From: a virus | Lineage: Duplodnaviria; Caudoviricetes | DNA length: 28,680 nucleotides | Strand: one strand, 5' to 3' | Virus record (IMG/VR): IMGVR_UViG_3300031655_000032 | Span: 1-28,680 of that record | Shown here: in pieces, positions 12,963-27,184 of the stretch | Layout: every line of letters starts with the position of its first letter | How positions within the stretch are numbered: the first letter of the stretch is position 1 | Translations under genes and position numbers: made by a program | Notes under the pieces: model-generated | Seen by the model: only the letters and a program-made list of their open reading frames with translations | What the model was told of the DNA's origin: nothing | Databases searched by the model: none

Positions 12963-15452
12963 TTATATAGATGCGTTGATTTTAACCTCGGGAGCGATAG
13001 CCAAAAGTGTGAACGGACTTGGATCGTCGCTCTGTACCCATAGCCGTGGGTCTGACTCCCAATTTCCCTCTAGTTCTACAAAATGTTCGCCTGTGAATAT
13101 GGGGGTTCCCGAATCCATCGGATCAGACACGTCTCTAAAGTCTGATTTAATAAAAGCGGAGTTCTCGTCAACCTTGTATTCAATGGTGTGACTGAACAAG
13201 ACTACGAATGTAATCCCGTTGATTCTCTTTATTCTACCTACGGCAGTTCCTGATGGGTTTCCACCCTCAATTTTAAGAGTTTTGAGCTTGTGAGTGTATC
13301 CTAGCCCAACCTGTACAACCGAAGCGGGGATATCTAGGGCTATGCTTCCACTGGCGACAGTTTTATCGGCCTGTAGTGCGCCATCTGCCCACACTTTGAC
13401 CTGCTGACCCTCTAAATGGGCTAGTCCTGTGAGGGTAGACGTGGAGGATGAGTCGTAGGTAAGGCCAGAATCAACGTAAAAAGCATCTTCTTCGTCCTGA
13501 TCGTCATCGTATTGCCGCTCTAAAAATTCTATGTATCGGACTGTGGCACCATTTACGGTTCTCTTAACCTGTACCCAAACCTCATCTCGTGAAGTTGAGT
13601 CGTGTGTTTGTCCAACAGCACTAGCACCGGGGATTATAGCTACTGTCTCTACTACTGCGTCTCCGGTAGAAAATGCTCCCCCGAGTATATGTCTTGCCCA
13701 TCCTACGACGTCTTCTTGCCTTCGAAACGTCATGGAAGGAAGCTGACCGTCGCCTCGTACCACCCAAACCTGTGAGTCAGGCTCTTCTGCGTGATCCATT
13801 TCTACGATGCCACTCTGAGTAATATGCTGAGCCAAGCGAGTCATATCGAACGCTTGGTACCCATCAGTCTCAAAGGTAAAGCCAAATTCTCTAATCTTGC
13901 GTTTTGCCCTCTGAGCGAATAACACGATATTATCCACTCGGACAGGTGCAATCTGTGCAGATCCATGTGTGGTCTGTCGTCTTACTGTAATATCGGATGG
14001 GGTTATGACAGATCCCGTAGAAGAGGGTATCCATTCACCGCCGGTTGTGCCGATGGACAGAGTGTCCTCCCCCGCAGACATCCATCTGATAGCATTAACA
14101 TTATCAGCACTGATAGAGAAATCAAGAGAGTCGTCATCTTCCACAGTCTCATCCCAAGTTCCTGATGTTGGGTCGCTATCAGGTGCGTAGTTTTCGAAGT
14201 CCCCCGTCTGCGACGCCCAGAATGTTTGCGGCTGATTCGTGTTCCCTGCTGCGTATAGTCTCTGCTCAAAAAATGCTCCTGTTGATGGGTATCCTGTGTT
14301 CGCTGACCATGAGCCAAGCCTCCATTTAGTTTCTGCGGTAGTTGTTCCGAATGTTCTTTCGACATCTACCGTAACAGATGTCGTACTTCCCACTGCGGTG
14401 ATCACCCCCCATCCCCAATTAACTGGGCTTGAGTCGCTTATCCTGATCGACCGGCCCACGTCAGTTGATTGAAAACCTACCCCGCCGTTAACTGCTGCTA
14501 TGGTAGACGCCGTAACAGTTATACCAAACCCTGTTGCCGCCGACGGATTCATAGTTGTTGCCGTAGAATTTTCTTGAAGCCACGGGCCATCTTGCCACGG
14601 GACTTCAATAAGAGACCACGTTGTGTTACCTCGTCGTTCTAATCTGTATGTTGGGTAAGACCCGTGAAACATATACAAAATATCAGCAGATTGTGGCCCT
14701 TCTATTTCGTAAAGATCCGCCTCGGCATATGGAGTTTTAATCTCCATAGGTTCGTCATCCAAGAGTGCGATGTTGTCCATCTGGACAGTCTTTCCAAGTT
14801 CTTGTTCAAATCTTACGAAGAAATTTGCTGCCGTAGTTGTAAAAGAGTACCCGTGATAACCTACTTCAGCAGTAAAAGTATCGACAATCTGTGTCCCCCC
14901 AGTGGCTGTCCCCACACTGAAAAGAACGTAGTCGCCCGGAGCACCAATAACCTGAAATTGTAGTATGTGTTCTGCGGCTAAAGAGTTTGTGATCTGCTGT
15001 TCGGCTTCCGCATTGTTTGTTCCGTTGGAAACTAAGTTAAGTCTCTTATTGCCTGAGTCGTAGGTAATAGAACAGCCCGCACCGGAATTATCTGTCCAAG
15101 AAGCAATACCTGATGTGAACGTGCCATTAGCTATTCCCGCTGTTATGCTAGGAACTACTATCTGACCCTGATTCCGGTAGAAGCGCATGTTACCAGCGCC
15201 CATCTCCAAGACGTAATTTTGTGTAGTTGAAAATTCAAACTTCTTTAGGCGTGATTTGACTGTAGCCCCGGTCTTAGTAGCCGCAACAAATCGCGTTCCA
15301 GACCTGCGCTGAATTCCACCTTCCGGTAGAGCAATAAAGTTTTCTAGCGTCTCCACGCCACTGGGGTATTTATTAAAGTCTACCCGAGAAGACAATCTAG
15401 GGGATAGTTCCCCCGTATTCATGGATGGAGTTAGCGGATGTACTTTTGGCAT
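12963..15452 (-). CDS. Tail tubular protein B (nozzle)
   Basis: GELSPRL..RVD..KY..G...LENF...PEGG..RRSGTRFV N-terminus, GYPS...FFEQRL, EDVVGWARH. 829 aa, directly after tail A. Confidence 0.9.
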   Translation of the reverse strand: MPKVHPLTPSMNTGELSPRLSSRVDFNKYPSGVETLENFIALPEGGIQRRSGTRFVAATKTGATVKSRLKKFEFSTTQNYVLEMGAGNMRFYRNQGQIVVPSITAGIANGTFTSGIASWTDNSGAGCSITYDSGNKRLNLVSNGTNNAEAEQQITNSLAAEHILQFQVIGAPGDYVLFSVGTATGGTQIVDTFTAEVGYHGYSFTTTAANFFVRFEQELGKTVQMDNIALLDDEPMEIKTPYAEADLYEIEGPQSADILYMFHGSYPTYRLERRGNTTWSLIEVPWQDGPWLQENSTATTMNPSAATGFGITVTASTIAAVNGGVGFQSTDVGRSIRISDSSPVNWGWGVITAVGSTTSVTVDVERTFGTTTAETKWRLGSWSANTGYPSTGAFFEQRLYAAGNTNQPQTFWASQTGDFENYAPDSDPTSGTWDETVEDDDSLDFSISADNVNAIRWMSAGEDTLSIGTTGGEWIPSSTGSVITPSDITVRRQTTHGSAQIAPVRVDNIVLFAQRAKRKIREFGFTFETDGYQAFDMTRLAQHITQSGIVEMDHAEEPDSQVWVVRGDGQLPSMTFRRQEDVVGWARHILGGAFSTGDAVVETVAIIPGASAVGQTHDSTSRDEVWVQVKRTVNGATVRYIEFLERQYDDDQDEEDAFYVDSGLTYDSSSTSTLTGLAHLEGQQVKVWADGALQADKTVASGSIALDIPASVVQVGLGYTHKLKTLKIEGGNPSGTAVGRIKRINGITFVVLFSHTIEYKVDENSAFIKSDFRDVSDPMDSGTPIFTGEHFVELEGNWESDPRLWVQSDDPSPFTLLAIAPEVKINASI

Positions 15453-16057
15453 TAGTTAGAGTACCCAGAACCAGAGCGGTTACGGGAATTTGCCCACGAG
15501 CCTCTTGGGCGGGGTTCAGGGAATGAACCCATAGCATCCAGTGATTTAGCTCTGGCTAAATCTTTGATTGCACGTTTTCCAAGCTGATCTTCTAGTACAT
15601 TGGAATTGGCTACAGTAATAGCCAAGTCACGAGCCAATGCAGAGGCTAACGCTCTTCTGAAGGCCGGTGTCATAATATTCGGATCTTGTTCTTGGTATGT
15701 GTAAACCAAATATGCAGATTCCACGTCTGTTACGATTACGTTTTGCGACCCAACCTGTTCGTGACGATAGTCCATAGTGCCAGAACTAGCGTCATTATCG
15801 TGAACAGATATAGTGAAAATCCAGTCCGCTGGGAGCGAAAAGGCGTTGTCGTAGCCGAAACTAGGGGCTGTAGTGGATTTAGCTAACTGTACACGCTTCG
15901 TGGCAAAGTTCCAAGGGAACTCCATCAACTCGTCGCGTATAATGCTATATAGATCCTGAACAGCGTTTGCGTTCGGTGTGCCTTGGGTAAGGGATGTTAT
16001 TCGAGTTCCACCAACTAGGCGTAGTGCCACGTTAGCGATATCGGTCTCACTTGCCAT
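15452..16057 (-). CDS. Tail tubular protein A (adaptor)
   Basis: SETDIANVALRLVG...ITSL...PWNFATKRVQL...LPAD motifs. Confidence 0.9.
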   Translation of the reverse strand: MASETDIANVALRLVGGTRITSLTQGTPNANAVQDLYSIIRDELMEFPWNFATKRVQLAKSTTAPSFGYDNAFSLPADWIFTISVHDNDASSGTMDYRHEQVGSQNVIVTDVESAYLVYTYQEQDPNIMTPAFRRALASALARDLAITVANSNVLEDQLGKRAIKDLARAKSLDAMGSFPEPRPRGSWANSRNRSGSGYSN

Positions 16058-18037: not shown

Positions 18038-18067
18038 ATGATACCAAACATAAGCCTATTCTGTCAA
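18038..18067 (-). promoter_or_regulatory. sigma70-type promoter for the major capsid gene
   Basis: Minus strand TTGACA-18 bp-TATCAT with TGn extended -10. Confidence 0.75.
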
Positions 18068-18441
18068 CTTTTTTTATCTTCCTTCTTTTCTTTTTCCGCT
18101 CTTTCCTTCTGGCGCTTCCGATACTTTTTTCGGGCTTCTTTTTCGTCCCCTTTGGAAAGATGCTTATTATGGTGAGGGACACGGCTAAAGTTAGCCGCTC
18201 CCTTCCTGCCCTCAGAATTTTTCTGCCTTACATCATCAGTCTCAGAAGAGCGTCGTCGAGATTCGTTTTCCGCCGCAATAAAGCCATCCTCTGTATTAGG
18301 GAAGCTCTTAGGCTTTGGGTTTTTACGATTCTTCTTTGATCGGGTGGCGCTAAGTGCGCCTCTTCCCGAACTATACCCAGCAGTGTTGACTACAAAGACT
18401 CTCCCGTCTTCCGTGAAAGTACCGCTCTTCTGATGACTCAT
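18064..18441 (-). CDS. Lys/Arg-rich hypothetical protein
   Basis: Starts immediately after the scaffold stop (TAAATG). Highly basic. Confidence 0.6.
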   Translation of the reverse strand: MSHQKSGTFTEDGRVFVVNTAGYSSGRGALSATRSKKNRKNPKPKSFPNTEDGFIAAENESRRRSSETDDVRQKNSEGRKGAANFSRVPHHNKHLSKGDEKEARKKYRKRQKERAEKEKKEDKKS

Positions 18442-19680: not shown

Positions 19681-19884
19681 CTATTTTGGATACCTTTTTC
19701 TAGTTTTAACTTTATTCTTCTTCTTCTTTCTCTTTTTAGCTTCCTCTGAGTTCTTCTTGTCTCTTTTTTCTACTTCTTTTCTGGAGGGGGCTTTTGATTT
19801 AAAAGTCCGTGAACCTCCACCAAGTCCGACTTGGTTAAAGAAGTCACCATCTCGCATGGGGGGCTGGTTATAGACTTTGCTCAT
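19681..19884 (-). CDS. Small Lys-rich protein
   Basis: Coupled on both sides (ATGA overlap, TAGATG). Confidence 0.6.
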   Translation of the reverse strand: MSKVYNQPPMRDGDFFNQVGLGGGSRTFKSKAPSRKEVEKRDKKNSEEAKKRKKKKNKVKTRKRYPK

Positions 19885-20312
19885 TTTTCGCTCCCTGCTT
19901 TTTTCTTATCTGCATCACTTTCCTTTTTATCTTTATCCCGCGTCCGTTTCATAAATTTAATCCAGCTTCGTGCGTTTTTTAGGGTCTTAGAGCGTTTTAC
20001 TGCTTCGTCTAATCTACCTTTGCGAGATTTCTTTTCTCCAACTTTAACTCCCATGAAAAACCCACCCTTATTTCCGTCCGCAGCCGAATTACCCGCATTT
20101 TTTGCTTGGGTGTCGTCGTTGATAGCATTTATGATAGGGTTATCTTTTTTGTTCTTATTGAACGTCCGGGTTCTTATAGCATCATCTTTATCTTTTTTCT
20201 TACTCAGACTTCTGATCTCAGACTTCGGTGGAGGGTTCTTCTTATCTGGACGCTTCCTCTTTGTATCCTTTTTCTTCTTCTTATTAGATCCGTAACCTAC
20301 TCCTTCTGGCAT
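19881..20312 (-). CDS. Lys-rich basic protein
   Basis: MPEGVGYGSNKKKKK start with an AAGGAG RBS. Confidence 0.65.
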   Translation of the reverse strand: MPEGVGYGSNKKKKKDTKRKRPDKKNPPPKSEIRSLSKKKDKDDAIRTRTFNKNKKDNPIINAINDDTQAKNAGNSAADGNKGGFFMGVKVGEKKSRKGRLDEAVKRSKTLKNARSWIKFMKRTRDKDKKESDADKKKAGSEK

Positions 20313-20534: not shown

Positions 20535-22220
20535 TTAAGCTGGAACTCCTTGATCGGGTTGTTTGTTAGGATCTTGTATAAGACCCGCATCTTTCGCGGC
20601 CTTGGCACCTTTGCCAACGATACCGGCTTGCATATCAGCGGCTTGAAGTTGCTGCATCTGTTGAAGTTGTTGTTGCTCTGCCTGAAGTTTCTCTTGTACC
20701 TCTTCCTTGGTATTGAGGATCTCATGTGGTAGAGAAGCTGCATCAGCCTTAAACCGGGCTAGTGCGTCAACGTTAACCAGATGCTTAGCCTCTGGGGATA
20801 CTTGAGCCATCTGCATCACCTGCATCGCCCACTCGGAAGCGGCAGCAGATTGGACTTGTTTCTTAATCTTATCCACGGGCAGATCGAACTGGAACTTAAT
20901 GTTCTGCCCGGATAGTATCTCCGGTACTTCACCAAAAGCGTTCTCTCTGAATAGCAGTCTGAAAGCTCTGTCAACCATTGGCTCATTATAGTCAGTCTGG
21001 AAGCGCCCGAATACAGGCCCAACTTCTCGGATGAACTCATCCTTACGCTGGATGATCTCTGTAGCTGTCATCTGTGGCCCGCCTTGTGGCAAGTTCAGTA
21101 TATTTCTGAAAAACGCAGATGATACCTGATTTCTAATATCCGTCTGCATGTCTCTCGTAACAGGTAAGTTATTACCAGAGATCATAGGAAAGAATGGATT
21201 GCCACCTACCGATGCCGCAGTCTCCACGTCGTAGTAACTTATCCCTCCGGGGTAAGTCATAACTTCTTGGAAGGCGCCGTCGTTAGGTGCCATAATTGGA
21301 GGATCAGCTAGTCGCTGTCCTGCCACCAGAATGGTCTCACCCATAGCTTGCAGGGTATTACTGTCTGGTAGTGCAATCATACCCGGTGAACGACCGTACT
21401 CTTCTCCCGAAGAGGTGTCCCATCGTGGTATGACAAAAGGGAATTCGTGAAAACCACCCTCGTGGATGATGTGCTTGCTTTGGGTCTCCATCCAGATCTC
21501 TTCGATTGGGAAGTCCTTGGAAAAAATAGGGTTGTCGAGAATTTGATTCTCTCTGTTCCCCACCCAGTACAGCAAATCTATTTTGTCATCAGAATTGTTG
21601 TTAGCAATCTTTTCTTGTACTTCTTTAGAAAGTTTATTTCTCCCAAACTTGATTTCAGCTTGCCATATGAACATCTTCTTAGTTCTATAAAGACCGTGTG
21701 GATTGCCCTCATCATCAAACATGGGGAACCCGTCTTTAAGATGGACAGACTGAAAAATAAGATTCTGTTGGGACTGAGCAAGACCGGCATACAAAATACC
21801 AGTGCCCATAACCACAAGATCAAGATCAACCTCACCAGTGGCCTGTCTGAAACGTGCCAAAGGATTTCGGATATGACTATCCAGAATCTCTGTGGATCGA
21901 CCCATCCAGTCCTGCACCTCACCCTGCTGGTTTAAGCTATCATCCTCGGCGCGGATCTCTGCCAGAGTCTGCCCTTCTGGGCGGATCATAGCTCCAACCG
22001 TATTTGCCAAACTTCGAGCCGCTTGCATAGGTGTGCCATCGAAGACATCATCTACGCGAGAGTTTCCGTCTGACATGGTTTGAGTGAAACCTTGTCGAGT
22101 GGAGAGCAGCACACGGGACAGATCGTCCCAGTGCTCCTCAAACTGAGAGCGCCGATTTTTAGCGGCACCCTGCTTCTTCATGTGGTGCAAAACGATCTCT
22201 TGCGGAGTTTTTAGTTTCAT
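20535..22220 (-). CDS. Portal (head-tail connector) protein
   Basis: FDGT...A...LA, DLVVMGTG, FPFVIPRW...GEEYGRSPGM.ALPD, MTATEI.QR motifs of the podovirus head-tail connector family. Confidence 0.95.
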   Translation of the reverse strand: MKLKTPQEIVLHHMKKQGAAKNRRSQFEEHWDDLSRVLLSTRQGFTQTMSDGNSRVDDVFDGTPMQAARSLANTVGAMIRPEGQTLAEIRAEDDSLNQQGEVQDWMGRSTEILDSHIRNPLARFRQATGEVDLDLVVMGTGILYAGLAQSQQNLIFQSVHLKDGFPMFDDEGNPHGLYRTKKMFIWQAEIKFGRNKLSKEVQEKIANNNSDDKIDLLYWVGNRENQILDNPIFSKDFPIEEIWMETQSKHIIHEGGFHEFPFVIPRWDTSSGEEYGRSPGMIALPDSNTLQAMGETILVAGQRLADPPIMAPNDGAFQEVMTYPGGISYYDVETAASVGGNPFFPMISGNNLPVTRDMQTDIRNQVSSAFFRNILNLPQGGPQMTATEIIQRKDEFIREVGPVFGRFQTDYNEPMVDRAFRLLFRENAFGEVPEILSGQNIKFQFDLPVDKIKKQVQSAAASEWAMQVMQMAQVSPEAKHLVNVDALARFKADAASLPHEILNTKEEVQEKLQAEQQQLQQMQQLQAADMQAGIVGKGAKAAKDAGLIQDPNKQPDQGVPA

Positions 22221-22222
22221 AC

Positions 22223-22468
22223 TTATCCTAGTTTCGCAGAGGAAATACTACCCCCTCCAGTGTTGCCAAGTCCGTCTTCTGACGTTGAGGCTAGTTGAGA
22301 ACCCGTTCGTCCCCTTCGTCCAGCCGCAGTTATCTTACTTGCCTTCTTCACGTTCTGCTCCACGGGTGGAGGAGGCGGCGGAGGCGGCGGAGGCGGCGGA
22401 GGCGGGGGCGGTGGTGCTGCTGGTCGTGGAGGTGATCCTCCACCGGGAACTATGCACTTAAATTTCAT
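22223..22468 (-). CDS. Poly-proline pre-portal small virion protein
   Basis: Pro17 tract, RRGR motif and ..KLG end. Occupies the T7 gp6.7/7.3-like slot. Confidence 0.65.
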   Translation of the reverse strand: MKFKCIVPGGGSPPRPAAPPPPPPPPPPPPPPPPPVEQNVKKASKITAAGRRGRTGSQLASTSEDGLGNTGGGSISSAKLG

Positions 22469-22471
22469 AAC

Positions 22472-22711
22472 TTATCCTAGTGTAGTGTTGTCACTATCCC
22501 CAGACGCATCAGTATTTAATATACTTCCGCCGGATTGTGTATTTTGAGTTAGTATTGATCCTGATCGTCCTCTTCTCCTAGCCACGCTGGCCTTCAAGTC
22601 CCTTTTCGCGGTCTCAATAGCCGGGTCAGTTCGCTCCGGCGGAGGCGGCGGGGCGGGCGGTAAAGGCGGAGGCGCGGCTGGGGAACTACCAAAGCCGGGG
22701 AATATATTCAT
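22472..22711 (-). CDS. Pro-rich pre-portal small virion protein
   Basis: MNIFPG, Pro tract, RRRGRSGSILT and a TLG end. Confidence 0.7.
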   Translation of the reverse strand: MNIFPGFGSSPAAPPPLPPAPPPPPERTDPAIETAKRDLKASVARRRGRSGSILTQNTQSGGSILNTDASGDSDNTTLG

Positions 22712-23076: not shown

Positions 23077-23180
23077 CCACCAGCCCCCGGTCTTTTAACT
23101 GTCCCACCTTGTGACTGGGTGTTAGGGTTTTTTACTACATCTCTCTTTCCGTCGTCTCCCTTTTTCTTTTTCTTGCTCAT
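23073..23180 (-). CDS. 35-aa basic peptide (not in ORF track)
   Basis: MSKKKKKGDDGKRDVVKNPNTQSQGGTVKRPGAGG. ATGA overlaps at both ends fill the gap exactly. Confidence 0.6.
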   Translation of the reverse strand: MSKKKKKGDDGKRDVVKNPNTQSQGGTVKRPGAGG

Positions 23181-23548
23181 CGTCTACCCCTTCCTCTTCT
23201 CATTGTTCTCGTGCTCCTACGTTTAGGAGCCGCGCCCGCAGCACTAGAAGTTGTGTTACTCCCACCTGCTCCCCCAGTGCCCGTCGCAGCTTCTGGACGT
23301 TCAATCTGCTGAAAGTTCGCGTTCTCGTTCTGAGCCGTATTCGCTAGTCCTTGTTGACGTGTCAGATCTCTCGCGTCCTGTCTTACTACACGATCTGCTA
23401 TTCTTCTGTCTTTGTTCGCTTGACCGATGACGAACTGTTCGTTTCGCAAGTTCAAAGCCTTAGTGTTGGCTACAGTCTCTGGGTTGCTTTTGAATGGTGC
23501 AGGTTGAGCTAAGTTATTGGGCCATCCTGCGCCGGGGAATATGTTCAT
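23177..23548 (-). CDS. Low-complexity protein with MNIFPG N-terminus and RRGRGRR C-terminus
   Basis: Start re-called at ATG 23548 (GGAGAGGA RBS). N-terminus matches 22472..22711. Confidence 0.65.
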   Translation of the reverse strand: MNIFPGAGWPNNLAQPAPFKSNPETVANTKALNLRNEQFVIGQANKDRRIADRVVRQDARDLTRQQGLANTAQNENANFQQIERPEAATGTGGAGGSNTTSSAAGAAPKRRSTRTMRRGRGRR

Positions 23549-23549
23549 T

Positions 23550-23723
23550 CTATCCTCTCCACTTGTGGGGATTATATTTACTCTGCTGAGTATTTGGTTT
23601 GTGTACTTTTTTCTTATGAACCATCTTCGCCTGTTCCATAACCCGTGAATCAAAATACGCCTGTAATGTATCTTTTGTCCATCCGTTTTTCTTCTCTTCG
23701 TCTGTGAGAACTAGATCAGTCAC
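23550..23723 (-). CDS. 57-aa protein with a TerL-like C-terminal tail (not in ORF track)
   Basis: GTG start overlaps the upstream stop (GTGA). MTDLVLTDEEKKNGWTKDTLQAYFDSRVMEQAKMVHKKKVHKPNTQQSKYNPHKWRG. Stop lies 1 nt before the next ATG. Confidence 0.65.
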   Translation of the reverse strand: MTDLVLTDEEKKNGWTKDTLQAYFDSRVMEQAKMVHKKKVHKPNTQQSKYNPHKWRG

Positions 23724-24007
23724 TCTTGAAAATCCTGTGGTACGGAGAAGAACCTGTCTCCACGTTGAATGACTTTAAAGCCTCTTTTCAGTTCCGCATC
23801 TACCGCTAGTGGGAACGTCGGGTGTTTTGCACCTTTCAGAATCATGTAGCTGTCCTGCGGTAGCCCGAGGTCTTGCATCTGCTTTAAGCTAGTAGGAACT
23901 ACGGAACCCATGTGGCCCGTGTCATCCCGTTCCATGCCATGTCCTAAAGCTGAATCCATATCGAATCCTTCACCGGCTGGATTGAACTTTTTCTTCTTTG
24001 TTGCCAT
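23720..24007 (-). CDS. Hypothetical phage protein
   Basis: TAATG coupling to TerL. GHMGS...ILKGAKHPT motif. Confidence 0.6.
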   Translation of the reverse strand: MATKKKKFNPAGEGFDMDSALGHGMERDDTGHMGSVVPTSLKQMQDLGLPQDSYMILKGAKHPTFPLAVDAELKRGFKVIQRGDRFFSVPQDFQE

Positions 24008-25599
24008 TACCGTCTCCAGTTTCTATGTGGGTTGTACCGAGAGTTAGTCCGTTTGGGCGAACTATTGAATCGGCCTACTTTATTCTTAGCTGGAATCAGT
24101 GCGTACACCGCAGCGTCACCTTTTCCGGGTGATCTGCCAATGCGTTTCTTTAAGTCACCAAATCCGTCTTTACATTCTGTCGATTTACCCTCGACTTGGA
24201 TACCACGACTGGTTAACTGCCACTTCGGTGCCGAAAGATCAACCTTCAACTCTCTATCAGGCCATAATGCGATTGCGTTCGGGTTGTCTGGGTTCAACGC
24301 TTCTCTCATACGCCACCACAGCATACTACGAGTGTTAAAAAACCCTAATGTGCCCGATGAGTCCCGCTCGTGGCTCTCCTTACGTCCGTCCACTGAGTAC
24401 ACGTTAGCGCCGTTTGTTCTGAGATGGTCTAGTATACTAGCACCTGCTCCACCAATGATGTCTAACATCATCTGAGCGCCGTCTCGTACATATGTAGTAC
24501 AGATAGCTGCTCCAGTAGGGCCGTCCGGTGTACTGGCACCCTTTAAGACGATCTGAGGGCCGAACCAATTCCCGTATCGTGGGCTTAAAACAAAATCATC
24601 TTTACCACCCCGTGCCGGGTCAACCCCCAGAGCGTCCATCTTAACTCCTTGAGGCTTCTCATCTGTCCAACGGGCTTGTGCCAACTCGATCCAAGCAGTT
24701 GGTATGACCTGCCACGGATCGTCTTGGACGCCAGCAGTAAAGTCACCCATCAACATCTGGCTACGAAGCGGTTCTGGTAGTGCTTGTAGAGCGGCTTTGT
24801 AGCCGGAGTTGATTAGAAAAGGGTTGTCGTCAACCGATGAGGGTATAAATGTGCGTGATCTGGGTTGCACCCAGTCTTCGTCTTGCCATATGGGTTCACA
24901 AGTTGGGACTTCCACGTCGTTACCGTCGATGTCGCTGATGAACCACCTAAGCTCACCCGGTCGTGCTGGATTAGGATGCTCCCTGTCGAGCCAAGGTGCC
25001 CAGTAGTCAACAACCCACTGTCCTTCGGCTGAAGTGGGTGGGTTGGTCGCGCACACAATCCTACATCTTTGATTCGAATCTGCTGCTCTATTCCATGTAG
25101 TAACATAGCGAAATTGGCTCTCCAAGAACTGCGTTAATTCATCGAAACATATGAGGTCACGGGGATCACCCTGATATGCGACCTCATCTCCTGAATACTG
25201 CATACCCCCAAGACGTATAGCCCTTCCCTTACCCAGATCAAAGCGATGTAATTGCCCATTAAAGCCCACCCTCGTTTTTCGTATTCTAATAATCTCTTCT
25301 TCTATTGGCCCAAGCTGTTTCACTTCTCGCCTATAGATTACAGATTTAGTGTGAGCGGTTAGGGCCAGCCCAATCATTAATGACGACTTACCACCGCCAG
25401 CCGCACCCCCGAATAGTAAAATATCGGCAGGGGAATCATACGCCTGTTTCTGCGGTGTAATTTGCTCTGGCTCTTTTGTATTAATAAGAGGACGCCACGG
25501 TACGTCAGTGGCATCTTCCAGAAGCATTTTGTCTATTTCTGCTTTTTCTGCTGGGGGCAGGTTATTATACTGCTCCAGTAGGGCATCTAAACTCGTCAT
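24007..25599 (-). CDS. terL: Terminase large subunit
   Basis: Walker A GGAAGGGKS, Walker B ICFDE, coupling motif ATNP, nuclease GVDPARGG.D and GRSP..GDA. Start placed at MTSLDAL (AAAGG upstream). Confidence 0.95.
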   Translation of the reverse strand: MTSLDALLEQYNNLPPAEKAEIDKMLLEDATDVPWRPLINTKEPEQITPQKQAYDSPADILLFGGAAGGGKSSLMIGLALTAHTKSVIYRREVKQLGPIEEEIIRIRKTRVGFNGQLHRFDLGKGRAIRLGGMQYSGDEVAYQGDPRDLICFDELTQFLESQFRYVTTWNRAADSNQRCRIVCATNPPTSAEGQWVVDYWAPWLDREHPNPARPGELRWFISDIDGNDVEVPTCEPIWQDEDWVQPRSRTFIPSSVDDNPFLINSGYKAALQALPEPLRSQMLMGDFTAGVQDDPWQVIPTAWIELAQARWTDEKPQGVKMDALGVDPARGGKDDFVLSPRYGNWFGPQIVLKGASTPDGPTGAAICTTYVRDGAQMMLDIIGGAGASILDHLRTNGANVYSVDGRKESHERDSSGTLGFFNTRSMLWWRMREALNPDNPNAIALWPDRELKVDLSAPKWQLTSRGIQVEGKSTECKDGFGDLKKRIGRSPGKGDAAVYALIPAKNKVGRFNSSPKRTNSRYNPHRNWRR

Positions 25600-25607
25600 G
25601 GTCGCCT

Positions 25608-25784
25608 TTAGTAATTTGGTTCGCTCTTCTTTACTTCCATATAGCATCCCGCGAGAGCGTTCTGCTGGTCAGTGTTAAAAGCAATAGCCTCGTTAAGACA
25701 GTCGTCAATAGTTCCGTTGTATATGTTCTTCTCGCCTTGCAATGTAAAAATATTCATTATCCACAGGATGACTATGAGTTTCAT
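25608..25784 (-). CDS. 58-aa protein with hydrophobic N-terminus (not in ORF track)
   Basis: MKLIVILWIMNIFTLQGEKNIYNGTIDDCLNEAIAFNTDQQNALAGCYMEVKKSEPNY. ATGA overlap with the TerS stop. Confidence 0.6.
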   Translation of the reverse strand: MKLIVILWIMNIFTLQGEKNIYNGTIDDCLNEAIAFNTDQQNALAGCYMEVKKSEPNY

Positions 25785-26320
25785 TCTTCTACCGGCTCCT
25801 CACCGTATACAACTGTAACAGGATCGACTTTGTTGGTAGGCTTCATGCCTTTAGCTCTCATCAACACTGACAACATACGTTGCTCCTTGTCTGTGTCGGT
25901 TAAGTTAACTAGGCTCTTGCCATTAGCCCCTGTGAGTTCGAGACGATCTGCCTCTCTCCACCCAGCTTGGGACTTCAACCAAAAGATCATGGCAGGTACG
26001 TTCCCTTCCATAGCCTTACCATACAAGGCACCGGACACTCGCGTGTTAGCCCTCATCTTCCCATAGTCGAGTTCGGATTTGAAATACTTATTTAGGATCT
26101 TCATCGAGACGCCCAGAGACTCAGCTTGGTGCATCGGCTTGATACCATTGGCAGACATCATAACGACGTCTTCCCGCTGGATGTCTGTTGGGACAAAAGC
26201 CGGTGTTCCTCCATGCGTATTATTCTTAGCCCCTTTGGGCCTACCAGCTTTTCTCTTGGAGGGAAATGCCGCATCAATTTTGGCTTGCTCTTTTTCCGAA
26301 GGTATTTTTCTGAAACTCAT
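25781..26320 (-). CDS. terS: Terminase small subunit-like protein
   Basis: GRPKG, HTH-like segment, L.KYF..ELD.G, LY.KAM.GNV.AMIFWLK...GWRE and ELTGANG. Lies upstream of TerL. Start re-called at MSFRK. Confidence 0.8.
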   Translation of the reverse strand: MSFRKIPSEKEQAKIDAAFPSKRKAGRPKGAKNNTHGGTPAFVPTDIQREDVVMMSANGIKPMHQAESLGVSMKILNKYFKSELDYGKMRANTRVSGALYGKAMEGNVPAMIFWLKSQAGWREADRLELTGANGKSLVNLTDTDKEQRMLSVLMRAKGMKPTNKVDPVTVVYGEEPVEE

Positions 26321-26321
26321 G

Positions 26322-26543
26322 TTATTTTTTATTCTTATTTTGGTTTCTAACTTGCTTCCGGCGCATAGCATTAACCAATTTGCGTTCTGCTGCTTTCGTG
26401 TTTTCGTTTCTAGGCTCATCCCTTTCAAATATCCCACCCTGCCTTACAAAACGTGGGCCAGAGCCGGGGGCTGTTCTTCTGTCGCGTTCAACACTCGTGT
26501 CGTGCAGAGATTTTATCCATTTTCCTGTTGGCGTTTTAGGCAT
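26322..26543 (-). CDS. Small basic hypothetical protein
   Basis: Start MPKTP with an AGGTGG RBS. Fills the gap between neighbours. Confidence 0.55.
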   Translation of the reverse strand: MPKTPTGKWIKSLHDTSVERDRRTAPGSGPRFVRQGGIFERDEPRNENTKAAERKLVNAMRRKQVRNQNKNKK

Positions 26544-26545
26544 AT

Positions 26546-27184
26546 CTATATCCACCTTTCAAATTTTTGTTCATCCGGCCCTAGTATACCATACCTTTCA
26601 TGGTACTTTATAAAAATAGCGCCAAAACGGACGGGTTGTGATTGGAACTTCCGTAGTGCGGAACCTTCGGGAATAGTAATTTTGATACCACGGCCCTCCG
26701 CCAGTCCCAGTAAATACTCAGTGCAAGCCCGTTGATAGTCCCACTCCTCATCTGGCATTAAGTCCACGCCGTAAAGAGCTATCTCATCTGGTTCCATGCT
26801 AATGGCGTGGGAGAGCATGTACGTTATAGATGATATGAAATAATCACGGGTCTTTTGGATGACTTTTTCAAACGGATACTGTAGTACACCACCCCAGTAC
26901 GCTTCTTGCATATAAAGCGTTTTGTTTGGGTCTTCTGAAATCTTTTTCAGAGTCTTCCAGTAATTCTGAGGTCGGTGTGCTTGAGTTTTAATGTGATCAC
27001 CTGCCCACGACTCCGTTAGGATAAGCGGGGAGGATAATTCAAGAACGTTCTTTTCGTGCATCTCGTACAGTCGATCATATTTCTCCCACTTATCATCCCA
27101 CGGTAGGCCAAACTTTGTCCACTCGGGATCGTAGAGAGGAGCTTCATCATTTGTAGGGCCAAAGCCCATTACACATATCTTCAT
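26546..27184 (-). CDS. Sialyltransferase/Maf-like (CstII-type fold) protein
   Basis: MKICVMGFGPT and SSITYMLSHAISMEPDEIALYGVD resemble the GxGPS and TSG.YM...A...G.KEI.L.G.D motifs of CstII/Maf-type transferases. GGGAG RBS. Confidence 0.6.
   Translation of the reverse strand: MKICVMGFGPTNDEAPLYDPEWTKFGLPWDDKWEKYDRLYEMHEKNVLELSSPLILTESWAGDHIKTQAHRPQNYWKTLKKISEDPNKTLYMQEAYWGGVLQYPFEKVIQKTRDYFISSITYMLSHAISMEPDEIALYGVDLMPDEEWDYQRACTEYLLGLAEGRGIKITIPEGSALRKFQSQPVRFGAIFIKYHERYGILGPDEQKFERWI

Follow-up and report, generated by a model that had tools for sequence, protein, structure and literature searches.

A conserved 57-residue protein of uncultured short-tailed phages bears a C-terminal tail like that of the large terminase

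In a widespread, uncultured group of short-tailed phages, a 57-residue protein encoded beside the large terminase (TerL) and portal genes carries at its C-terminus the same linear motif as TerL itself, N-x-x-Y-x-P-H-x-(x)-W-R. In the 28.7-kb virus record analyzed here (the window) this open reading frame (ORF) lies at 23550..23723 on the minus strand, opens with a GTG codon, and encodes a helical N-domain followed by the TerL-like tail. The ORF ends in KPNTQQSKYNPHKWRG and TerL in SPKRTNSRYNPHRNWRR, each followed by its stop codon, so that the ends read as described in the earlier note, which had pointed to a shared S[KR]YNPH[KR]x(0-1)WR-type terminus. The reading that we favor, at roughly even chances, is that the small protein acts as a cap or placeholder, which would occupy the sites for the TerL tail on the portal of the procapsid and later be displaced from them by the DNA-loaded motor.

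The window holds a short-tailed-phage morphogenesis module on the minus strand, which comprises a small terminase gene (25781..26437, minus strand, phrog_309), the 546-residue TerL (24007..25647, minus strand, matching phrog_979, phrog_2 and, weakly, PF03237), small genes, a PF12236 portal (20535..22220, minus strand, phrog_332), a Bbp19-like gene, a scaffold-like gene, a PF19821 capsid and tail genes; a tail tubular/adaptor-like gene (15452..16057, phrog_394) is distinct from the ORF. The closest cultured portals, those of HTVC010P-type pelagiphages, are about 31% identical, and at least half of the sampled words of the window are present in 15 marine DNA runs, ten of which are flagged as potential sources of this DNA. 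Promoter and terminator scans stayed at chance level (11 vs 7.4 ± 2.7 and 8 vs 6.0 ± 3.0, respectively). The tight coupling of the ORF to both neighbors, also claimed in the earlier note, is evident: its start overlaps the upstream stop (GTGA), and its own stop lies 1 nt ahead of the next ATG, that of a gene at 23177..23548 (minus strand, start MNIFPG) whose ribosome-binding site overlaps the W-R-G codons of the ORF. Between TerL and the ORF the window carries a 95-residue gene (23720..24007, minus strand) without a family match. This gene is a strain-level insertion; close relatives (e.g. L005) join TerL directly to the ORF, and one joining sequence skips the 288 nt in question.

Several other small genes surround the ORF. 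The downstream gene and those at 22472..22711 and 22223..22468 (minus strand) make up three small pre-portal genes with related starts (MNIFPG, MNIFPG and MKF..PGGG), present in differing copy number across relatives. Like HTVC010P gp03/gp04, two of them combine poly-proline runs with an RR-G-R-x-G ... LG end; a 19-nt DNA repeat links two of the starts, and the products may resemble T7 gp7.3-type virion proteins. A conserved gene of 140-155 residues (AIWL.G.E ... GPD.A..ALR), absent from the window and without a match in a PHROG search, adjoins the ORF in many relatives (e.g. L002:6397-6813). Small lysine/arginine-rich ORFs amid the head genes (19881..20312, 19681..19884, 18064..18441 and 26322..26555, minus strand) vary across relatives and might, as a guess, encode DNA-condensing or internal proteins. 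A 15-nt exact direct repeat, with both copies inside terL but in different frames (24507..24521 and 25570..25584), is probably due to chance.

Searches with the ORF returned 63 homologues, which fall into 43 clusters at 50% identity. Locus sets were then pooled from N-terminal-pattern scans, which involve no selection on the tail, and from tail-pattern, TerL and portal scans; among the 366 records, 330 frames match the N-domain profile and reduce to 159 distinct cores of 40-79 residues from N-domain to stop. The two concerns that the ORF might not be conserved and that its homologues might lose the YNPH-W motif were not borne out, given that 129 of the 159 cores end in [YF]-x-[PVA]-x(1-3)-W and that the family dN/dS is 0.11 (35 disjoint pairs), with 0.09 for the N-domain and 0.09 for the tail. 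The N-domain (residues about 5-36, 23616..23711, minus strand) follows the pattern T-x-E-E-x-K-N-G-W-T-x-x-x-L-x-x-Y-x-x-x-R, in which G14, W15 and Y23 are invariant among 86 homologues. The AlphaFold2 model (pLDDT 85, pTM 0.51) consists of a short helix (residues 8-12), a 20-residue helix (17-36) and an extended tail, and the stretch from P43 to the stop (PNTQQSKYNPHKWRG, 23550..23597, minus strand) bears the shared motif.

No Pfam or PHROG family matched more than two of the 86 members at E 0.05, and a PDB sequence search gave no match at E 10. Fold searches with the model gave best E-values of 2.5 (BFVD) and 3.9 (PDB), the best VIA-align hit had a Z of 3.0 and an rmsd of 6.0 over 50 aligned residues, two queries of the ESM Atlas yielded no usable match, and tblastn against 50,697 GenBank phage records found none. 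None of the fold searches linked the model to the helical-bundle fold of head-tail adaptors or plugs such as P22 gp4 and T7 gp11. Conservation and selection together indicate that the ORF is a real gene, conserved and under purifying selection, and a member of an undescribed family that is new as a family. The term "uncalled" used for it earlier is better replaced by "unannotated", since its exact sequence is in the ESM Atlas and a predicted protein with 95% identity is on record. Contigs from two of four RNA runs (shares 0.06-0.10), of a kind that cannot show transcription, cover 23633/23640-23722 and derive from a relative without the 95-residue gene. Four matches lie in MAG contigs assigned to four unrelated taxa, the contigs being too short for host assignment. 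A search for fusions among proteins of 176-2000 residues (7,991 candidates scored; 105-175 residues fell outside the range) gave a single DnaJ fragment joined to the ORF domain on an 859-bp contig, which is probably a chimera. Production of the ORF as a TerL read-through or frameshift fusion was rejected because the frame offset varies (52, 24 and 2 among 78 adjacent pairs) and 40 of 118 TerL-ORF pairs lie at least 300 nt apart.

The ORF accompanies the head module with great regularity. Among 80 loci fetched by their portal, 51 show the TerL 3' end, and the ORF is present in all but one of them, 50 in number; overall it is found in 55 of the 80, and most of the other 25 loci end within 1.5 kb of the portal. 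In the exception (L173) TerL has no Y-x-P-H and ends in STAMQTNTLKWRR; its record, which is 72% complete, yielded no ORF to a search that recovers five of five known positives. Two further records (L149 and L164, 19% and 30% complete) contain neither the ORF nor TerL in the 5.7 and 9 kb upstream of the portal. Several loci keep the ORF near the portal and have their TerL gene kilobases off; of four TerLs so placed, three retain the terminal motif. In a divergent clade, genes intervene between TerL and the ORF (L039:1125-5535, L069:3156-4549 and L079:898-4532) which by eye look like a nonulosonic (pseudaminic/sialic) acid pathway, with a synthase, dehydratase, aminotransferase and acetyltransferase. 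The loci thus sampled indicate that nearly all members of this uncultured podovirus lineage carry the ORF as a core gene beside TerL and the portal.

The copy of the motif on TerL lies in its last 24 residues, past the nuclease domain (24007..24081, minus strand, bearing RTNSRYNPHRNWRR before the stop), a stretch modeled with low confidence and as unstructured. In an AlphaFold2 model of TerL the last helix ends at residue 502 of 531 and residues 508-523 and 528-531 have pLDDT below 50, so the motif copy is best described, on this model, as a flexible extension past the nuclease domain. In the main clade the tail has a net charge of +3 to +7 and its Y, P, H and W are conserved. The TerLs themselves form seven seed groups with different best PHROG matches, and TerL type switches 11 times on a tree of 45 portals. 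Pairs of portals that are 86, 80, 64, 64 and 55% identical are accompanied by TerL cores without a significant BLAST match to each other (E 0.14-1.4) and nevertheless by the same tail; in the swapped pairs L002/L175, L132/L137, L061/L176 and L163/L169 the last 15-20 residues are kept. The TerL of L002 (747 residues) seems to carry an insert, and that of L042 has homing-endonuclease matches. Six TerLs that are 42-46% identical to that of the window belong to other head modules; three lack such a tail, the other three end in related [YH]-[DHR]-P-[YFL] forms, and no ORF homologue was seen beside any of the six. Counted by the exact form of the tail, five TerLs from other head modules, about 45% identical to that of the window, do not have it. 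Tail distance correlates with portal distance (rho 0.65). These comparisons suggest that the tail belongs to the head module rather than to the TerL core, a linkage to the head module as a whole and not to the portal alone, and by analogy the tail has what would be expected of a portal-specificity peptide.

In 58 anchored pairs the TerL tail has N at -3 (55), Y (58), P at +2 (55) and H at +3 (46), and the ORF tail has N (48), Y (57), P (53), H (39), W at +5 (55) and R at +6 (51). The two tails have their own signatures, R-[AT]-N-S versus Q-N-H, and therefore represent separate lineages. In a set of 118 pairs, 109 TerLs and 107 ORFs possess the motif core, 104 pairs on both proteins, and the W that follows it is kept in 103 ORFs against 67 TerLs, the ORF tail being the better conserved. 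Only 9 of 13,231 other distinct closed frames of at least 50 residues in the fetched loci end in [YF]xP[HLF]x(1-2)W; by eye, seven are TerL or ORF homologues missed by the filters and two are unrelated. In the complete genomes G013, G014 and G015 just TerL and the ORF score (27-33 bits, against at most 7 for other proteins), and a genome-wide docking tag was therefore rejected for lack of a third protein; in G016 the ORF alone scores, weakly (10.6 bits), and a divergent TerL tail falls outside the best five. Tandem copies, namely two FNPHKW units in one ORF homologue (P0061) and three [YH]-x-P-F units at one TerL end (L102:5016-6674), fit a linear motif.

The resemblance of the tails is not that of two copies of one DNA segment. 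Shared residues use the same codon in 307 of 731 cases, against 297 ± 12.5 expected from the codon usage of each locus, and in 192 of 454 against 186 in a second set; a mild excess in an earlier thinned subset of 21 pairs (62/118 vs 52 ± 5) is gone in these larger sets. In the window none of the five shared residues (S, Y, N, P and H) uses the same codon, and the serines even come from different codon families. No DNA repeat joins the two tails among the largest 20 of 43 repeat families, and the ORF family profile matches TerL in tail positions only. The suspicion that the similarity reflects a decaying duplication of the terL 3' end can thus be set aside, with codon identity at chance and a low tail dN/dS, and the shared tail is, as codon usage indicates, kept at the protein level. 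The W-[RK] ends of the ORFs are encoded by TGGAGA in 75 of 129 cases and by TGGCGN in 38; the W-R end is shaped partly by the ribosome-binding site of the next gene, which, considering the TGGCGN ends, is not its sole cause.

We assessed whether the two tails vary together. Own-genome similarity between the TerL and ORF tails beats shuffled pairings in all four strata, including G+C class and TerL type (73 thinned pairs; 41.6 vs 38.1 ± 0.8, permutation p=0.0002). Contrasts between N-domain neighbors were 28 positive, 5 negative and 3 zero, a result that may be inflated by the N-domain tree being a poor guide to kinship. Across the 73 pairs the motif is lost jointly in 6, on one side in 3 + 3 and kept by both in 61, with a Fisher p of 3.7e-5 that is inflated because three of the six joint losses sit in one portal clade; among the one-sided cases, the TerL of L167 lacks the motif and its ORF keeps part of it, and L282 displays the reverse. 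Deviant tails occur together, as in RANSSYRRLR with RANSHYRKLG (L267), PTQTKNAMRWLRR with PTQTICHRRWLRR (L331) and KVENQYDVHKW with KVESYYNPYEW (L256), and L185 has YRPQRWRG on both proteins, encoded differently at six of the eight codons. Each of three portal clades has its own tail dialect, which follows the clade across G+C contents of 37-71%, and one clade holds four TerL types. Contrasts between portal neighbors were weak, with 8 positive, 6 negative and 8 zero in the first set (p=0.40) and 15, 7 and 1 in a larger one (sign p=0.067, Wilcoxon 0.013), and the nine closest pairs gave 5 negative, 1 zero and 3 small positive values; the signal therefore comes from a handful of clade-level shifts. 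The proposal that the tails co-vary across relatives accordingly stands for portal clades and fails for nearest relatives.

The portal (20535..22220) is the inferred common partner of both tails, and its residues about 307-351 (21168..21302, minus strand), acidic in the main clade, are a putative clip. We take this segment to be the clip from its position between two stem helices. In the clade with four TerL types it carries less negative charge (0 to -2; most values elsewhere fall at -3 to -5) and the tails are less basic. Clip charge correlates with TerL-tail charge (rho -0.37) but not with ORF-tail charge (rho -0.13, p=0.39). Sliding-window partial correlations peak for both tails at portal residues 270-314 and 330-404 and for the N-domain at 405-449, peaks that flank the clip rather than center on it and that are exploratory, the windows being non-independent and without a per-window test. 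A complex prediction with two portal copies (residues 14-480) and the ORF scored 0.00 in both runs with controls that did not fold, and is evidence neither way.

In T3, lambda, SPP1 and P22 the C-terminal tail of TerL is what binds the portal (PMC13595956, PMC4856287); the T3 site is TerL residues 571-586 (PMC3276506), and P22 TerL without residues 483-499 does not bind the procapsid portal (PMC5290284). As in T3 gp19 (571-586), lambda gpA, SPP1 gp2 and P22 gp2 (483-499), the TerL motif described here occupies the extreme C-terminus past the nuclease domain, and like those four it is basic, proline-rich with hydrophobic residues, unstructured alone and specific to a head lineage. Three features were tested and found, namely a C-terminal position outside the nuclease fold, charged and hydrophobic composition, and head-linked specificity; with P22 gp2 483-499 it has no sequence motif in common. 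What differs from the known tails is that a second, free-standing protein of 57 residues bears the same tail. Head modules of the BPP-1/epsilon15/phiV10/Carin1 and HTVC010P types have the same gene order, a PF12236 portal (24-32% identity) and a Bbp19-like gene. The TerLs of phiV10 and Carin1 end in DYDPYA and DFDPWG, a related aromatic-x-Pro-aromatic tail that is acidic and short, and the HTVC010P TerL tail lacks the motif. No such small gene was found between TerL and portal in HTVC010P, phiV10 or Carin1, so such a gene is not a general requirement.

A laboratory reagent offers one parallel to the small protein. Morita in 1995 is said to have found that a synthetic hexapeptide analogue of the T3 prohead-binding site inhibits packaging. 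Both are short copies of a TerL tail standing in for the docking site, but the 57-residue protein is phage-encoded, conserved and equipped with its own helical domain. It also resembles Gpi (of PLE, binding TerL) and Ppi (of SaPI, binding TerS) as a small protein regulating access to the motor (10.1101/2024.04.22.590561); those are satellite-encoded and bind terminase subunits, whereas the 57-residue protein belongs to the core set of an autonomous phage and would bind the partner of the terminase. No PHROG or Pfam family match links it to Gpi or Ppi, in libraries that may not include models of these. A satellite packaging inhibitor of this kind was rejected, the ORF being encoded by a phage with its own virion genes: the window has portal, capsid and tail genes, and the complete relative G013 has a polymerase, helicase and primase. 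In the open-access literature, supplements aside, we found no published example of a natural stand-alone mimic of the TerL tail, and the accessible text of PMC7617512 names none. The small protein thus forms a new family that would use a variation on known docking-tail logic, with a putative function.

That both tails fit one site we consider quite probable, and that this site lies on the portal, at or beside the acidic clip, is on the whole likely too, if with less assurance, by precedent and lineage tracking. According to the cap reading, the 57-residue protein and TerL would be made from the same late operon and the former would bind first, covering up to 12 portal sites. The bound cap would keep DNA-free TerL, or the tail adaptor, from docking and would then yield to the multivalent TerL ring, perhaps persisting on spare sites. 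The N-domain would probably provide a second contact, to itself as an oligomer or to the portal; a contact with the TerL core is unlikely because cores are exchanged between unalignable types. The earlier suggestion of a competitor or placeholder for the TerL docking site holds as far as the shared motif, protein-level selection and clade-level covariation go, with the portal as that site being our inference. The same applies to partner and timing, and a placeholder, a release factor and a positive tether look alike at the level of sequence.

A rather unlikely alternative is that both tails bind one partner other than the portal, such as another head-module protein or a host factor (a protease reading a degron at the C-terminus, or an antiviral sensor, the ORF then being its decoy). 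The genes for scaffold, capsid, adaptor and small proline-rich proteins share the portal's lineage, and tracking by lineage would therefore point to any of these linked head genes as well as to the portal. The closest complete relative (G013, L371:2692-12079) has nicotinamide phosphoribosyltransferase, PRPP synthetase, RtcB and RNA ligase genes beside its polymerase and helicase, a set that we presume to resemble NAD-restoring, RNA-repair counter-defense, and may therefore invest in counter-defense. Host Avs sensors do recognize TerL and portal (10.1101/2025.11.14.688446). Nonetheless, the restriction of the motif to two proteins per genome does not suit a general degron or docking tag, the motif dialect tracks the portal clade over a wide range of G+C content, the same position binds the portal in four model phages, and a decoy would be expected to be patchy rather than present in nearly every locus.

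Unlikely as well is a positive tether or adaptor, whose tail would sit on spare portal sites with the N-domain holding DNA, the small terminase or the motor, stabilizing the 5-on-12 mismatch somewhat like the phi29 pRNA and possibly easing TerL-core swaps. The five-subunit motor on a twelve-subunit portal is represented by few atomic structures, and in HK97 only one of five TerL subunits contacts the portal (PMC13595956). TerL-core exchange is unusually frequent here, and some TerL tails decay while the ORF tail persists (L025, L167); the stronger conservation of the ORF tail fits a cap or a tether alike. On the other hand, most TerLs keep their own tail, fold searches match no DNA-binding fold, and seven TerL types, unalignable or distant as they are, seem too many for a single short N-domain to bind, which is why a cap is preferred.

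Just as unlikely, if not slightly more so, is a release factor that competes TerL off the portal at full head, ahead of adaptor binding. Competition for the same site and a better-conserved tail would suit such a displacer, and motor release is poorly explained, being attributed to a conformational change of the portal (PMC7617512 and PMC5290284). However, the latter source also reports that in P22 the tail of TerL recognizes the portal in its procapsid form only, so that a tail mimic should prefer empty heads before packaging, and co-translation with TerL provides no late timing; the procapsid preference is our reason for favoring the cap over a release factor.

Very improbable is a guard against parasites, blocking foreign terminases of satellites or co-infecting phages from the procapsids of this phage. 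Satellites do compete for procapsids and terminase through Gpi and Ppi (10.1101/2024.04.22.590561), and such blocking could be a side effect of a placeholder, but strong purifying selection and near-universal presence beside TerL and portal are unlike arms-race or patchy defense genes, no satellite of this phage group was identified, and the anti-parasite role proposed earlier found no support. An artefact, be it a decaying terL duplication, a by-product of ribosome-binding-site overlap or chance, can practically be dismissed: the frequent TGGAGA ends and the small codon excess of one thinned set point that way, but the excess vanishes in larger sets, the tail is under purifying selection, and the family profile matches TerL in the tail alone.

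Independently of the small protein, terminase cores swap between distant families in these phages while a tail of about 15 residues remains tied to the head module, so that TerL loses value there as a marker of lineage. It is possible, though we hold it somewhat short of even, that the small protein founds a class of packaging factors of its own: a cap for the portal, encoded by the phage, that copies the docking peptide of the terminase and licenses procapsids for the motor. As a natural ligand of 57 residues whose motif is defined, it would open the docking site to direct tests by cryo-EM, by competition and by binding of peptides. If the cap reading is true, a third, self-encoded component would join the textbook TerS-TerL-portal scheme and offer a natural lead for packaging inhibitors, the 12 tail sites of the portal would be a regulated hub, and a lineage could adopt unrelated terminase cores provided that the tail is kept.
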